From: Terriglobia bacterium
GTDB taxonomy: Bacteria; Acidobacteriota; Terriglobia; Terriglobales; Acidobacteriaceae
Assembly: GCA_963831465.1 (NCBI GenBank)
Contig: CAWHQH010000039.1
Coordinates: 108,892-172,891 of the forward strand
Direction of reading: 5' to 3'
DNA: 64,000 nucleotides
The notes below the pieces were generated by a model, which saw only the letters and a list, made by a program, of their open reading frames with translations, searched no databases and was not told the origin of the DNA. How positions within the stretch are numbered: position 1 is the first letter of the stretch; each line of letters begins with the position of its first letter. Position numbers and translations under genes: made by a program. This document shows positions 6,549 through 14,831 of the stretch, piece by piece.

Positions 6549-7772
6549 CTATGCGCTCTTGCGCAGCAGTCCAGTCATGGCCCAGATTCCAAGCAGTGGC
6601 CCCAATGCCATACTGGACAGGGCCCAATTCCATCCATAACGGGCCGCAATGGCTGCCATCAATCGAATGACGAACGCAGTCAGTAGAAATCCCAATGCGA
6701 CTTGGCAGGTTAGCGCCGTGCCGACGTAATTTTTGTCCGATACTTCGCTGATGATGGTGGAGAATTGAGCCGAATCGGCAATGATCGCGATTCCCCATAC
6801 CAGCGAAAGCGGTATGAGAATCATGGGATGGTGCAGCGTTAGCGCAGCCAGCACACAGCACATGGAACTGATGCCCATAGCAATTATCGTTACGCGGGCG
6901 CGCTGCGCCACGCGGACCCTAGACGCTTGGTCCTGCAGCTTATCACTGGCTGCCCCGGCCCATATGCAGCCCACTGCGCCAATAGCGATAGCCAGTGCCG
7001 CCATTGCTTCAAGCATTGAGTGGGACCATGCTGCGGAGACCGAGAAGATCACGGCGATCCATCCCCACATGGAGTAAAGCTCCCACATGTGTCCCAGATA
7101 GCCCAGATTGGCCAGCCGCAGTGATCGGTTGCGGACGATCTCAAGAATTTGCGCAGGGTCAAAGCGTGATTGTGGCATGGCAAATGGTCCTTGCCTCACT
7201 GCTACGGCAACAATCAAAGCTCCAAGCAATGCCTGTGCGCTACCAAGAAGAATTACACCTTGCCACGGCACTCGGCCCACCGCGCTTACCGCGTGAGGCA
7301 ACGCCGATCCTACCGTCAGCGCGCCGATCATGATTCCCAGCGCCAGTCCGCGTCCACGCTGAAACCAACCGGCAATAATTTTCATTCCTACGGGATAAAC
7401 ACCAGCCAGGAAGAAACCTGTTGCGCCGCGCAGCAGGATAGCCGGCAGTGGGTGTGCGGCCAAGAATGCAAATGCGGCGTTGGCAGCCGCTGCCGCTACG
7501 GCAGAGACAACCAGCACCTTAATCGGGCTGAAGACATCGGGAATATTGAAGAGCGCAAACGTGATAGCGCCTACTGAAAATCCAACTTGCACGGCGATAG
7601 TCAGCCATGATCCCAGTGCAAGCCCTGAATGCCAAAGCGTTGTTATCTGCGGAATTACAGCCGTTCCGGTAAACCACAGTGACATTGCCAATAGGATCGA
7701 GACTGAAAGCAAAAAAAGAGCCCGCCGGGATGAAGTTGCCTGGCGGGCTTCTGTCTGGACCGTTACCGTCAT
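6549..7772 (-). CDS. MFS transporter
   Basis: 407 aa with about 12 hydrophobic segments in MFS-like organisation. Its start directly abuts the stop of the upstream peroxiredoxin gene. Confidence 0.85.
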   Translation of the reverse strand: MTVTVQTEARQATSSRRALFLLSVSILLAMSLWFTGTAVIPQITTLWHSGLALGSWLTIAVQVGFSVGAITFALFNIPDVFSPIKVLVVSAVAAAAANAAFAFLAAHPLPAILLRGATGFFLAGVYPVGMKIIAGWFQRGRGLALGIMIGALTVGSALPHAVSAVGRVPWQGVILLGSAQALLGALIVAVAVRQGPFAMPQSRFDPAQILEIVRNRSLRLANLGYLGHMWELYSMWGWIAVIFSVSAAWSHSMLEAMAALAIAIGAVGCIWAGAASDKLQDQASRVRVAQRARVTIIAMGISSMCCVLAALTLHHPMILIPLSLVWGIAIIADSAQFSTIISEVSDKNYVGTALTCQVALGFLLTAFVIRLMAAIAARYGWNWALSSMALGPLLGIWAMTGLLRKSA

Positions 7773-8354
7773 TTAACTCTTAAGCTTCCGGCGTTCACAT
7801 GATTCAACCACTTTGGTGGGATCGATTGCATCGCTGTCGATCTGCATTTCGGCAATCTTTCCTTCTTTATCGATCAGGAAGTTCACGCGGCGGCCAATTT
7901 TGTGCTTCTCGTCATAAAGGCCGTATTTACGCGTAACGTCGCCGCCCCAATCGCTCAGCAGTGGGAAGGTGACATTGATTTTCTCCGCCCATGCGGCATT
8001 ACTGAAGGGGCTGTCCATGCTAACACCCAGCACCTGGGTGTCTGCAGCTTCCAGTTTTTTCAGATTCGCCTGGAAGTTCTGCATCTGCTTGGTTCAACCA
8101 CCGGTGAAGGCAAAGATATAAAACGCCAATGCGACGTTCTTCTTTCCCTTGAAATCATGGAGTGAGACCTTGTTCTTGTAGGTCTGATCGGGCAAAGTAA
8201 AGTCAGGAGCCACATCTCCGACCTTCAATGCAGGCGCCGGGGGCGCTTCTTTTTTTTCTTCTTTCTTATCGCTTTGCGCCAGCAGATTGGTTCCTGCCGC
8301 AGGCCCCAACAACGCCAGCGTTCCCAACATCTGAACAGCGGTTCTTCTACGCAT
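7773..8354 (-). CDS. Secreted AhpC/TSA-family peroxiredoxin with in-frame TGA (putative selenocysteine) at the peroxidatic position
   Basis: Track ORFs 8094..8399 and 7773..8084 are in the same frame and are separated only by TGA at 8094-8096. The read-through sequence is ...[21 protein letters not shown]..., so TGA sits at the C of the universal Prx TxxC motif. The ATG at 8354 has a GGAGGA Shine-Dalgarno and gives [21 protein letters not shown], a signal peptide. Confidence 0.7.
8044..8082 (-). promoter_or_regulatory. SECIS-like hairpin downstream of the in-frame UGA
   Basis: On the minus strand the structure is GCAG-AA-CUUCCAG [15-nt loop GCGAAUCUGAAAAAA] CUGGAAG-CUGC. It pairs 4+7 bp with an AA bulge. 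It starts 11 nt after the UGA, and the loop begins about 24 nt after it. Confidence 0.45.
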
Positions 8355-8492
8355 TAGTTCTTCCTCCGCATGAATGCTGCATGGTAAGCCTAAATTCACA
8401 TACTCAGTACGTCAATAGGCGAATCCTATAGCCGCTGGGGGCCAGCAACTTCAGCCGAAACAGGTGTTAGTATTTTGCTGAGATACATTCCA

Positions 8493-9212
8493 ATGAAAAC
8501 ATTAAGTTTGTCCATTATGCTGGCGCTTGCTTCTATTGCGTCTGCACAGGTTTCTACTACTCCCAGTGCGATCCAGATGAATACCATCTATGCCGGCGCG
8601 GATGGCAAGTTTGAAGCAGCGCCCGACACTGCCGTTATCCGCATGGATATTGCCTCGCAGCAGGATACGTCACGCGCAGCTTATGACCATGCTGCTTTGG
8701 CGGTGGACCATGTGCGCCAGGTTTTGACGAGCAATAACATTGATCTAAAGGCGGCCCAGTTCGGCACTTACCAGATGCAGCCGATGTACGACTGGAAAAA
8801 TCCCAAACACAAAGTGATCGGCTATCGCGTCAGCTCTGACGTCACGCTCAAGCTACGCGACTTCAAAAAGGTCGGCAACATGACAGAGCAATTGGCGGAC
8901 ATTGAAGAGACACAGAACCAGTCAGTGACTTACACGCTGGAAGATATTGAACAGGCAAAAGCCAAAGCGTCAGAAGACGCGTTAAAAAAGGCTCGCAACC
9001 AGGCAGCAGCCGTCGCCACCGCCGGCGGACGCACGCTGGGCGACCTTCTCTATGCTTCAGTGGATGTGAACCAGCAAAACGTTGTTCCGGCTATGTTTGC
9101 GCAAGCCAGATCAGCTGTATCGGCCGCGGCAACGCCTCCGCCCATGGCTGACTTCACGCCGCAAACGGTCACCATCAACGCGCATGTGAACGCCTTGTTT
9201 GCGCTGAAGTAG
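8493..9212 (+). CDS. SIMPL-domain (DUF541) periplasmic protein
   Basis: Signal peptide MKTLSLSIMLALASIASAQ. Overall similarity to the YggE/26-kDa periplasmic immunogenic protein family (…GYRVSSDVTLKLRDFKKVG…). Confidence 0.8.
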   Translation: MKTLSLSIMLALASIASAQVSTTPSAIQMNTIYAGADGKFEAAPDTAVIRMDIASQQDTSRAAYDHAALAVDHVRQVLTSNNIDLKAAQFGTYQMQPMYDWKNPKHKVIGYRVSSDVTLKLRDFKKVGNMTEQLADIEETQNQSVTYTLEDIEQAKAKASEDALKKARNQAAAVATAGGRTLGDLLYASVDVNQQNVVPAMFAQARSAVSAAATPPPMADFTPQTVTINAHVNALFALK

Positions 9213-11996: not shown

Positions 11997-12317
11997 ATGA
12001 AGAAGCAAAAAACACAAATGGAAACGCATCGCGCCATGCCGCGAGAAACCGAAGAACGCCAGGGTTTGTTGCTGCGCTTGCGACGCGTGGAAGGCCAGGT
12101 TCGCGGCGTACAGAAGATGGTGGAAGAAGACCGCTACTGTCCGGATGTATTGGTGCAGATGTCTGCCATTCATGAATCGCTACGCGCCGTGGAGCGAATC
12201 TTGATGAAAGACCACTTGCAGCACTGCGCGACTGAAGCCTTGCGCTCCGGTGACGACAAACAGGCGCAGCGCACATACAACGAACTGACAGAACTTTTCT
12301 ACCGCCACGCGCGCTGA
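11997..12317 (+). CDS. csoR: CsoR/RcnR-family metal-sensing transcriptional repressor
   Basis: RLRRVEGQVRGVQKMVEEDRYCPDVLVQMSAIHESLRAV...HLQHC shows the C-H-C ligand pattern. The gene sits directly upstream of copA. Confidence 0.9.
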   Translation: MKKQKTQMETHRAMPRETEERQGLLLRLRRVEGQVRGVQKMVEEDRYCPDVLVQMSAIHESLRAVERILMKDHLQHCATEALRSGDDKQAQRTYNELTELFYRHAR

Positions 12318-12329
12318 GGCTCCAGGGAC

Positions 12330-14831
12330 ATGAATCCAGAAACAGCAGATTCAGGAAAAATAGGAAGGACACTCGTTAAAGATCCCGTCTGCAATATGGA
12401 CGTTGATCCCGCCAGGGCCGCCGGATCGTCGGAACATAAAGGTCAAACGTACTATTTTTGCAGTCCAGGTTGCGTGAAGCGCTTTAACGCCGATCCGGAA
12501 AAATATCTAACGCCGAAGCCGCCCGCTGCTCAACTTCCCGAAACCCAGATGGTACAGATCGGCGGTATCGCGCCGCTAAAGCCTGCGGGTCAATCCGCGC
12601 CGCAGCAAGAAACAGGCAAGGGAACCGTCACCTACGTTTGCCCCATGGACCCCGAAGTGCGCGAGAGCAAGCCTGGAGCTTGCCCAAAGTGCGGTATGGC
12701 CCTGGAACCGGAAACTGTGGAATACACCTGCCCCATGCATCCGGAAATAGTGCGCAACGGTCCGGGTAATTGTCCGATCTGCGGCATGGCCCTTGAACCG
12801 CGGGTTGCCGTTGGCATTCACGAAGAAGACGATTCTGAATTGCACAGTATGCAGCGGCGACTGTGGGTTGGCGTCGCGCTTAGCATTCCTTTGCTTGCAA
12901 TTTCTATAGGCGGGATGGCCGCAGGCAGTCCCTTGCATAACCTGCCGGCGGGGTGGATGGAATGGCTGCAACTTTTGCTCGCAACGCCGGTGCTGCTGTG
13001 GGGTGGTTGGCCGTTTTTCCAGCGCGGATGGGCGTCTTTGGTTAATCGCCATCTGAATATGTTCACGTTGATCGCCATGGGAACCGGCACAGACTATTTC
13101 TTCAGCCTCATAGCAACGCTTGCGCCTGGCATTTTTCCTGCATCGTTTCTTGGCCATGGGGGACGGCCAGAAGTTTATTTTGAGTCGGCAGCCATCATCG
13201 TGACGCTGGTGCTGCTGGGCCAGGTACTGGAGTTGCGCGCTCGACGACAGACAAGTTCCGCCATTAAAGCCTTGCTCAACCTCAATCCCAAAACAGCGCG
13301 GCGTTTACGTCCGGACGGCTCAGATGAAGAGATTCCCCTGGATCACATCGAGCGCGGCGACAGCTTGCGCGTGCGCCCGGGTGACCGCGTCCCAGTGGAC
13401 GGCGTTGTGCAAGAAGGTAACAGCGCCGTAGATGAGTCGATGATTACGGGCGAGTCGATGCCGGTGGAAAAATCCGCAGGCATAAAAGTTGTGGGCGGAA
13501 CGGTGAACCAAACCGGTTCGTTCATTATGCGTGCGGAAAAGCTGGGCTCAGAAACGCTGCTGGCACAGATCGTGCGAATGGTCGCTGAAGCGCAGCGCAG
13601 CCGCGCACCAATCCAATCATTAGCCGATAAAGTTTCAGGCTACTTTGTGCCGGCCGTGTTGCTGGTAGCAGTACTTAGCTTCATCGCATGGGCCATCTGG
13701 GGGCCAGAGCCGCGATTTGCATACGCTCTAGTGAATGCCGTTGCAGTACTGATCATCGCCTGCCCTTGCGCGCTGGGACTGGCCACTCCCATGGCCGTAA
13801 TGGTCGGCACAGGACGCGGCGCACACGCGGGCGTACTGGTAAAAGATGCTGAAGCGCTGGAACTCATGGAAAAAGTAGACACGCTCGTCTTGGACAAAAC
13901 CGGCACCCTCACAGAAGGGAAGCCTCGGATGACGTCAATACTGGTTACTGGTAGCGTCTCGGAGGTCGATCTTCTATTACTGGTCGCGGCCGTTGAGAAA
14001 CTAAGCGAGCATCCCGTTGCTGCTGCCATCGTGCGAGAAGCGGAACAACGTAAATTGAAGCTTCCACAGGCTGCCAATTTTCAGTCATTTACCGGGCAGG
14101 GAGTCGCGGGAGAAGTTCTGGGCCGGAAGATTGCCGTAGGAACACCTGACTTCCTCGCAGGTATGGGAGTCGATACAGGCCCCATATCATTACAAGCCGA
14201 GACGCTTAGAAAACAAGGACAAACAGTTGTTCTTGCCGCAGTCGAAGGCAAGGCCGCTGGCCTGATTGCTGTTGCCGATCCGATCAAGCCTTCTGCCCGC
14301 GATGCTGTGACAGCATTAAAGCAAAGCGGCCTGCGACTGGTCATGCTTACGGGTGACAATCGCGCCACGGCCCAAGCCATCGCCAGGGAACTCGGTATTG
14401 CTGAATTTGAAGCTGAAGTGCTGCCGCAACAAAAATTGGCTATCGTGAAAAAACTTCAGGCTGAAGGCCGAATTCTTGCCATGGCAGGTGACGGCGTGAA
14501 TGATGCGCCTGCCCTGGCCCAGGCCGACGTCGGCATTGCTATGGGAACAGGTACGGATGTGGCGATGGAAAGCGGAGACATCACCCTGGTCAAAGGCGAC
14601 CTGAACGCGCTGATGCGCGCGCGAAATCTGAGCCGCGCCACCATGAGTAACATCCGGCAGAACTTGTTCTTTGCCTTTATCTATAACTTGCTTGGCGTGC
14701 CCATCGCCGCAGGGGTGTTGTATCCATTCACCGGATTGCTGCTGCAGCCAGTCTTCGCCGCTGCTGCAATGAGCTTTAGTTCAGTATCCGTTATTGCCAA
14801 TGCTTTGCGGCTGCGACGCGCAAAGCTGTAG
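12330..14831 (+). CDS. copA: Copper-translocating P1B-type ATPase
   Basis: Has the CPC motif ([12 protein letters not shown]), DKTGTLT, and [10 protein letters not shown]. The N-terminus carries a YHS/TRASH-like CxxC...C domain and two Y(V/T)CPM(D/H)PE...CPxCGMALEP heavy-metal-binding motifs. Confidence 0.95.

Follow-up and report, generated by a model that had tools for sequence, protein, structure and literature searches.

Peroxiredoxins that carry selenocysteine (Sec) in a T/SxxU motif are an established bacterial family, for which 12 members and five Cys-to-Sec conversions were reported previously (Zhang et al. 2006, PMC1794560), and a Prx entry (COG1225/Bcp) is present in the known-family reference list of a 2025 predictor. 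A UGA-encoded Sec as the peroxidatic residue is also found in PrxU of Eubacterium (Peptoclostridium) acidaminophilum, which follows the same recoding logic as the gene described here. In the present study, we examined a 64,000-nt stretch of DNA (referred to below as the window) from a Terriglobia bacterium (assembly GCA_963831465.1, contig CAWHQH010000039.1, positions 108,892-172,891 of the forward strand; GTDB lineage Bacteria; Acidobacteriota; Terriglobia; Terriglobales; Acidobacteriaceae), with a focus on a peroxiredoxin gene that is interrupted by an in-frame TGA. An earlier reading of the DNA sequence, made without database searches (the original prediction), had proposed that this gene encodes a Sec peroxiredoxin. 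The comparative analyses presented below support the proposal: the TGA is conserved among orthologues, Cys-type homologues exist, the RNA downstream of the UGA contains constrained hairpins, and TGA otherwise serves as a normal stop. On this basis, we estimate a probability of about 0.9 that the UGA at 8094-8096 encodes Sec at the peroxidatic position of an AhpE/BCP-like peroxiredoxin.

Conservation of the in-frame TGA

Two minus-strand open reading frames (ORFs), 8094..8399 and 7773..8084, lie in the same frame, and the TGA at 8094-8096 is the sole codon that separates them; reading through it gives the peptide quoted in the original prediction. Because 46 in-frame TGAs with at least 60 open codons on both sides were found in the window, nearly all of them in non-coding frames, this split-ORF geometry alone carries little weight. 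The protein family was examined with Cys put in place of the TGA. A single Pfam AhpC-TSA (PF00578) match was found to cross the TGA, extending from residue 45 to residue 169 and covering profile positions 1-123 of 124 (E=4.4e-37), with a score of 127.2 bits compared with a gathering threshold of 26. These data bear out the assignment of the joined product to the AhpC/TSA-type peroxiredoxins.

Alignment with Cys-type homologues placed the TGA on their peroxidatic Cys, within the motif FAF(T/S)GG-C/U, as the original prediction had anticipated. Cys was present at the aligned position in the homologues P0009, P0012, P0021, P0026, P0036, P0096, P0097, and P0120, and the codon was TGC in the two Cys homologues that were read at the DNA level (L060/L061, corresponding to P0026, and L062, corresponding to P0012). 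The aligned residue in the closest solved structures (2ywn and AhpE of Mycobacterium tuberculosis) is likewise the peroxidatic Cys. Active-site residues were surveyed in 61 full-length family members, comprising 38 Sec forms and 23 Cys forms, and position 87 was found to be either Cys or TGA in all 61 (counts for Thr84 and Arg156 are given in Table 1). Moreover, Cys186 was conserved in 59 of the 61 Sec and Cys members and in 58 of 58 orthologues, among which both TGC and TGT were used, and it is also present in Sec peroxiredoxin 2 of Anaeromyxobacter. This conservation suggests that Cys186 may serve as the resolving residue of a 2-Cys-type mechanism, unlike that of AhpE. With regard to the TxxC motif named in the original prediction, T84 and U87 are indeed at the aligned positions, but the fuller PxxxTxxC motif is not intact. 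At the place of its proline, position 80, the window protein has Ile, and V, I, L, or M was found in 38 of 38 Sec forms; the proline is kept in only 10 of the 23 Cys forms. The departure is common to the whole clade, Cys members included.

Conservation of the TGA itself was assessed in close orthologues collected through a scan of one genome per species. This yielded 52 loci with 63-99% protein identity to the window gene; six near-identical metagenome contigs (L001-L006) were counted apart from them. The 52 orthologues come from distinct species-level metagenome-assembled genomes (MAGs), mostly of Candidatus Angelobacter and otherwise of other Terriglobia or Acidobacteriota; one of them, L007, shares 99% identity with the window gene. 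TGA was found at the aligned codon in 52 of 52 orthologues. It was also found in 79 of 79 readable loci of a second subclade of metagenome loci (FYVLAFTGG-U-TKELQAYQAD) whose proteins are about 50% identical to the window protein. In addition, the exact C-terminal half was recovered on at least 21 independently assembled contigs, and six that were read at the DNA level had the same split. Both halves of the protein showed amino-acid conservation across the orthologues, and codons outside the hairpin region (see below) varied synonymously. Within the window, TGA is the terminator of 9 of the 36 long ORFs, and the code in use is therefore the standard one. Given that the TGA is conserved across orthologues, the second subclade, and independent contigs, and that the code is standard, it can for practical purposes be excluded that the gene is a pseudogene, that the TGA is a sequencing error, or that the code has been reassigned.

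Annotation of the family was examined in the 120 nearest protein clusters. Fifty-two of them are fragments that start just after the TGA, in agreement with the expectation that standard gene callers would produce two fragments or a pseudogene. Another 35 have 'W' at the site. When two of these 'W' proteins were checked at the DNA level, the residue proved to be TGA translated with an alternative code, and in one locus (L066) the true stop of the gene is also TGA. The public calls with TGA read as Trp (P0001, P0004, P0005, P0008, P0010, and others; L065 and L066) come mostly from the Joint Genome Institute (JGI) and from short contigs. The products are full-length 'peroxiredoxins' whose active site bears a spurious W, and the L066 call runs past the real TGA stop to give a 220-aa product. 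Two further observations concern individual loci. In L087, a member of the second subclade, an additional in-frame TAG (CAG to TAG) is located at codon 8 after the TGA, in the hairpin region, and represents either a real pseudogene or an assembly error. L035, L041, L045, and L052 are orthologues of 68-71% identity with TGA whose MAGs are labelled Candidatus Udaeobacter, Limnocylindria/Limnocylindrales, or Patescibacteria; these are improbable hosts, and the labels probably reflect bin contamination, or else horizontal transfer.

RNA hairpins and alternative readings of the UGA

In the model of the bacterial Sec insertion sequence (SECIS), a stem-loop directly follows the UGA, its apical loop lies about 16-37 nt away, and the loop contains a G. 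Downstream of the UGA in the window gene, two hairpins were identified (Table 1). Hairpin 1 begins 12 nt past the UGA, and its apical loop starts at +25 with G at loop positions 1-2; across the window's subclade this loop measures 13-15 nt. Pairing was compared in 48 distinct sequences, in which 97.7% of cells were paired for hairpin 1 and 97.6% for both helices together, compared with 23-45% when partners were shifted. Codon usage was compared in 58 distinct orthologous coding sequences. The codons of hairpin 1 were near-frozen, including at the wobble position: UUC, CUG, and ACC were each found in 58 of 58 sequences, and CAG and GAA in 57 of 58, whereas 2-6 synonyms are freely interchanged at codons in the rest of the gene. 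Accordingly, the normalised synonymous-codon entropy of the 23 codons following the Sec codon was 0.41, compared with 0.76 outside this region (Mann-Whitney p=4e-5), and the low-entropy trough began shortly before the UGA and ended about 30 codons past it. One compensatory change, a C-G to U-A double change, was detected in hairpin 1 (L052). The 90-nt stretch containing both hairpins folds at -32.5 kcal/mol. Judged from sequence and predicted pairing, the distance and loop G of hairpin 1 fit the bacterial SECIS model, while the large loop and the presence of hairpin 2 are atypical of it.

Hairpin 2 is specific to the window's subclade; it is absent in the second Sec subclade and lost in both Cys homologues read. 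Its pair 72-76 was G-C in 34, A-U in 13, and G-U in 1 of the 48 sequences, through the synonymous exchange of CAG/CUG for CAA/UUG, and this G-C to A-U switch was probably a single evolutionary event. A standard bacterial SECIS would lie closer to the UGA than hairpin 2 does; hairpin 2 may assist recoding as an accessory element. In the second subclade, a different hairpin of 9 bp is found, and its GGC/GUC loop lies at the same distance from the UGA (+24). When this hairpin was compared in 68 sequences, a pair formed by two third-codon positions was A-U in 19, G-C in 35, C-G in 3, and G-U in 3, and another pair changed from U-A to C-G in 5 sequences; pairing amounted to 79-100% per pair versus 11-32% overall with shifted partners.

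The two Cys homologues read at the DNA level were also inspected for the hairpins. In P0026 both are lost. In P0012 (L062), hairpin 2 is lost and an 8-bp remnant of hairpin 1 (ACUUUCAG...CUGGAAGU) follows the TGC, which suggests a fairly recent Sec-to-Cys conversion. The original prediction had counted Cys-carrying relatives without the hairpin as a refutation of Sec; such relatives are instead the expected pattern for a Sec/Cys family. Two other pairings were considered and rejected. A small hairpin with the UGA in its own loop (GGU-UGA-ACC) is not maintained in divergent orthologues. A proximal pairing for hairpin 1, of CAG with the nearer CUG, involves a Leu codon that varies (5 codons), whereas the distal CUG is invariant.

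Besides insertion of Sec, three other explanations of the TGA were weighed. The one that survives best, although it is very unlikely, is that the UGA is recoded as another amino acid, either by a near-cognate or suppressor tRNA (for Trp, Cys, Arg, or Gly) or under a reassigned code (code 4 or 25). That public gene callers translated TGA as W in 35 of the 120 nearest clusters would agree with such recoding, as would the fact that Sec machinery is not demonstrated for the source genome. However, TGA ends 9 of the 36 long ORFs of the window and is the true stop of the orthologue in L066, the site is Cys in homologues, which is a Sec/Cys signature, and selection acts in two subclades on a structured element whose distance from the UGA is that of a SECIS. 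Moreover, by established peroxiredoxin chemistry, catalysis would be lost if the peroxidatic residue were Trp or Gly. Still less likely is a split gene, in which ribosomes would stop at the UGA and restart at an ATG 9 nt downstream (8084), producing two polypeptides without the catalytic residue. The invariant ATG three codons after the TGA, and the annotation of two ORFs by gene callers, would be consistent with a restart, but Met or Leu at this place is a family feature that is also seen in Cys homologues and structures (CTKQM, CTKEM, CQGEL), and no good ribosome-binding site was found at a suitable spacing before ATG 8084. A split would also leave the signal peptide on the N-terminal piece only, and thus the two halves in different compartments, and would remove the catalytic residue even though Thr84, Arg156, and Cys186 stay invariant. 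The least likely explanation, that the TGA is a nonsense mutation or consensus error in a former Cys-type peroxiredoxin and that the gene is dead, draws on the resemblance of a single in-frame stop in a conserved domain to a fresh pseudogene and on the extra TAG of L087, but it is effectively refuted by the conservation data, namely the TGA in all 52 species orthologues and on the 21 or more independent contigs, the amino-acid conservation of both halves with abundant synonymous change outside the hairpin region, and a site at which only TGA occurs, with no TAA, TAG, or sense codon.

Several points nevertheless weigh against the conclusion that the UGA encodes Sec. The evidence is all at the sequence level, and none of it comes from the protein. 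Covariation of hairpin 1 is minimal in the window's subclade, where the hairpin is near-invariant with one compensatory pair, and its loop (13-15 nt) equals or exceeds in size the largest loops typical of bacterial SECIS elements. No SECIS or other family was detected with Rfam, whether in the region (E up to 10) or in the window as a whole (at gathering thresholds), which is unsurprising given the sequence variability of bacterial SECIS elements. The motif proline is lost (Ile/Val in Sec forms), and therefore the catalytic geometry may differ from that of textbook peroxiredoxins. With regard to the Sec machinery, tblastn with Escherichia coli SelA, SelB, and SelD detected no selA, selB, or selD in the 64-kb window or in the fetched peroxiredoxin loci, and two acidobacterial SelA proteins used as tblastn queries gave no match in the window or these loci. 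With ARAGORN, no tRNA was detected in the window, and 53 peroxiredoxin-bearing loci and two selA loci yielded no tRNA-Sec. None of four SelA-bearing contigs was from an assembly in the orthologue list, and no sel gene was tied to a peroxiredoxin-carrying assembly.

The Sec trait is present elsewhere in the phylum. Solibacter is a Sec user with 3 selenoprotein families (Zhang et al. 2006, PMC1794560), and Occallatibacter riparius, a Terriglobia isolate, has 3 known selenoproteins. When Solibacter SelA (from the 2006 supplement) was used as a query, SelA was found in many contigs of Acidobacteria, among them one from an NCBI 'Acidobacteriia bacterium' MAG, the top matches being only Solibacter-like. 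Support from the Sec machinery thus reaches the phylum and class level only. The acidobacterial selA loci had some features of their own. L067-L070 share synteny with efp, a GFO/IDH/MocA oxidoreductase gene, and an E1 dehydrogenase gene, and in some of them mobile-element or defence genes (integrase, AbiE) adjoin selA. In L067 and L068, the two loci scanned for tRNAs, a tRNA-Pro(CGG) is located just upstream of selA on the opposite strand, and the Solibacter SelA sequence of the 2006 supplement carries an N-terminal extension that resembles translation through that tRNA-Pro gene.

Probable export, proposed mechanism, and neighbouring genes

The positions of the features discussed are collected in Table 1. 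The true start of the peroxiredoxin gene is most likely ATG 8354 rather than GTG 8399, and the GGAGGA at 8367-8362 lies upstream of this ATG. A signal-peptide architecture is kept at the N-termini of all orthologues. Because it contains no lipobox Cys, and because the RR of the window's signal peptide is not conserved among orthologues (which have RK or K instead), export to the periplasm would probably proceed via the general secretory (Sec) translocon rather than the twin-arginine (Tat) pathway.

Table 1. Positions of the peroxiredoxin gene, its predicted functional elements, and adjoining features in the window
Feature	Position	Strand	Details
Peroxiredoxin precursor gene	7773..8354	minus	193 codons plus stop; ATG 8354-8352; predicted Sec codon is residue 87; TAA 7775-7773
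Shine-Dalgarno-like GGAGGA	8362..8367	minus	7 nt upstream of ATG 8354; read from sequence
Predicted signal peptide, about residues 1-28	8271..8354	minus	Basic n-region, hydrophobic core, AQ/GQ-type cleavage region
Thr84 codon, T of the T-x-x-U motif (T84-G-G-U87)	8103..8105	minus	T or S in 61/61 members
In-frame TGA, predicted selenocysteine 87, peroxidatic position	8094..8096	minus	TGA in 58/58 distinct orthologous coding sequences
Hairpin 1, SECIS candidate	8044..8082	minus	GCAG-AA-CUUCCAG / 15-nt loop / CUGGAAG-CUGC; 11 bp, 2-nt bulge
Hairpin 2	8023..8041	minus	ACACCCAG-GUG-CUGGGUGU; 8 bp; 53-71 nt after UGA
Arg156 codon, conserved active-site arginine	7887..7889	minus	R in 61/61; aligns with NR arginine of AhpE
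Cys186 (TGT), only cysteine of the protein, candidate resolving cysteine	7797..7799	minus	Within conserved C-terminal AIDPxxxxxC
Terminator-like hairpin	7711..7748	minus	GCCCGCC-(15 nt)-GGCGGGC followed by UCUUUUUUU, U-run; starts 24 nt after peroxiredoxin stop
Major facilitator superfamily (MFS) transporter gene	6549..7772	minus	Pfam MFS_1, 1.9e-18; start abuts/overlaps peroxiredoxin stop
SIMPL/DUF541 gene	8475..9212	plus	Divergent from peroxiredoxin gene; nearest NCBIfam is YggE 'oxidative stress defense protein', below cut-off

Based on these features, the following mechanism is proposed. Hairpin 1 (8082-8044), possibly with help from hairpin 2, would recruit SelB carrying Sec-tRNA(Sec), so that the UGA is read as Sec, and the signal peptide would direct the precursor across the inner membrane. 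The Sec87 selenolate, activated by Thr84 and Arg156, would then reduce a hydroperoxide and be converted to a selenenic acid. Cys186 would most likely resolve the selenenic acid to a selenenylsulfide, which a periplasmic thiol reductant would in turn reduce.

The gene directly downstream encodes an MFS transporter. Of the 52 species-genome loci, 34 show this arrangement, among them orthologues of only 66-75% identity, as do 6 of 6 of the contigs L001-L006. At the junction (7770-7775), the peroxiredoxin stop and the MFS start form TAAATG in the window, and TAATG, TAGATG, or TGATG elsewhere; the two adjoin or overlap in every lineage in which the pair is kept. A terminator-like hairpin is located within the first ~20 codons of the MFS ORF; a terminator scan missed it because its loop is larger than 8 nt. 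The hairpin is kept in 38-39 loci that retain the MFS gene, with compensatory changes from G-C to A-U in 5 loci and from C-G to U-A in L032. The combination of this hairpin with an abutting junction may reflect attenuation or translational coupling. A more specific possibility, which we regard as unlikely, is that Sec decoding in the peroxiredoxin gates expression of the downstream MFS gene, in effect a selenium-sensing attenuator built from a selenoprotein gene. Under such a scheme, when selenium is scarce, ribosomes would stop at UGA-87 and none would be present at the junction, and the hairpin would form and terminate transcription or block MFS initiation; when Sec is inserted, the ribosome arriving at the peroxiredoxin stop would re-initiate on the MFS gene and melt the hairpin. 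If gating of this kind were to operate, the MFS protein would serve the periplasmic selenoenzyme, for example through reductant export or transport of a selenium compound.

Upstream of the peroxiredoxin gene, the SIMPL/DUF541 gene was found in 33 of the 52 species-genome loci and in 6 of 6 of the contigs L001-L006. Farther neighbours include genes for a CsoR-type repressor and copper ATPase, a MatE transporter, formamidase-family and beta-lactamase-family proteins, and PntB, none with an evident functional link to the peroxiredoxin. The CsoR-type metal-sensing repressor gene and the copper P-type ATPase gene that follows it in the same frame (YHS and HMBD domains) occupy 11997-14831 on the plus strand; they form an ordinary copper-resistance pair, ~4 kb from the peroxiredoxin gene. 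No convincing second selenoprotein emerged when the window was scanned for further in-frame TGAs that have long open flanks or a CxxU/UxxC-type context.

Significance and comparison with known systems

Candidatus Angelobacter and its Terriglobia relatives rank among the most abundant bacteria of soil. If the conserved, exported enzyme is indeed a selenoperoxiredoxin, selenium supply could affect the periplasmic peroxide defence of these Terriglobia, and the Sec trait would be in routine use in the Angelobacter/Terriglobia lineage. In current databases, the family is held as truncated fragments or false-Trp proteins, which account for 87 of the 120 nearest clusters. Because of this mis-annotation, and because no NCBIfam selenoprotein model covers the family, it is missed by selenoproteome surveys and annotation pipelines. 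The two subclades, with different hairpins at the same UGA distance, also provide a clean data set for the study of SelB recognition in Acidobacteriota. The Sec peroxiredoxin as an enzyme type was already known, and what was found here is a large, routinely mis-annotated group of it. New are the Acidobacteriota clade, the putative signal peptide, the lost motif proline, and the coupled MFS gene; the two-hairpin element after the UGA and the terminator-like hairpin inside the MFS gene are further distinctive features. Full-text literature searches returned no paper on a Sec peroxiredoxin in Acidobacteriota or Angelobacter, and the 2006 sequence set (PMC1794560) does not contain the string FTGGU.

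Among published Sec forms, the closest are those of Anaeromyxobacter dehalogenans. Prx 2 of this organism is 37% identical to the window protein over 147 residues and Prx 3 is 45% identical over 110 residues, both with U at the same aligned position, and Prx 2 shares with the window protein the C-terminal AIDPxxxxxC. They differ in phylum (Myxococcota, compared with Acidobacteriota/Terriglobia for the window) and in the motif around U, which is FAFTGGU in the window and AFTPGU or AFTPVU in A. dehalogenans. At the position of the motif proline, the window protein has Ile, whereas Prx 2 has Thr and Prx 3 has Pro. The Acidobacteriota clade has a putative signal peptide; the published A. dehalogenans N-termini are truncated and hence not comparable with regard to export. 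The conserved, coupled MFS gene is a further feature by which the Acidobacteriota clade differs from A. dehalogenans.

PrxU, the example given in the original prediction, holds as an analogy of Sec use but not as a close relative. It belongs to a different subfamily, which is AhpC/Prx1-like with the motif DFTFVU, and it is cytoplasmic. The window protein scored 80.4 bits against NCBIfam NF040737 (peroxi_PrxU), compared with a cut-off of 270, and is thus not a PrxU orthologue. No NCBIfam model reached its cut-off for the window protein, the best being BCP (93 versus 140).

The closest solved structures (E=1e-25 to 1e-23) are M. tuberculosis AhpE (Rv2238c; 1xvw, 1xxu, and 4x0x) and the peroxiredoxin of Sulfolobus tokodaii (2ywn and 4g2e). 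AhpE is among the best PDB matches (E~1e-23), and an archaeal BCP-like enzyme scores slightly better. By these sequence matches, the window protein belongs to the AhpE/BCP-like branch. The AFT-x-x-C stretch and the catalytic Arg of both enzymes align with the window protein; both are Cys-based and lack a signal peptide. AhpE is a 1-Cys enzyme that is reduced through mycoredoxin/mycothiol, and it differs from the window protein in that its motif proline is retained and that Cys186 has no equivalent in it.

With regard to the RNA element, the SECIS of E. coli fdhF is likewise a stem-loop within the coding sequence, right after the UGA, with a G in the apical loop. The window's subclade differs from it in having a much larger loop (13-15 nt) and a second conserved hairpin thereafter. 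The apex of fdhF is CA-GGUC-UG, and it is the second subclade, with the apex CA-GGC/GUC-UG, that resembles it.

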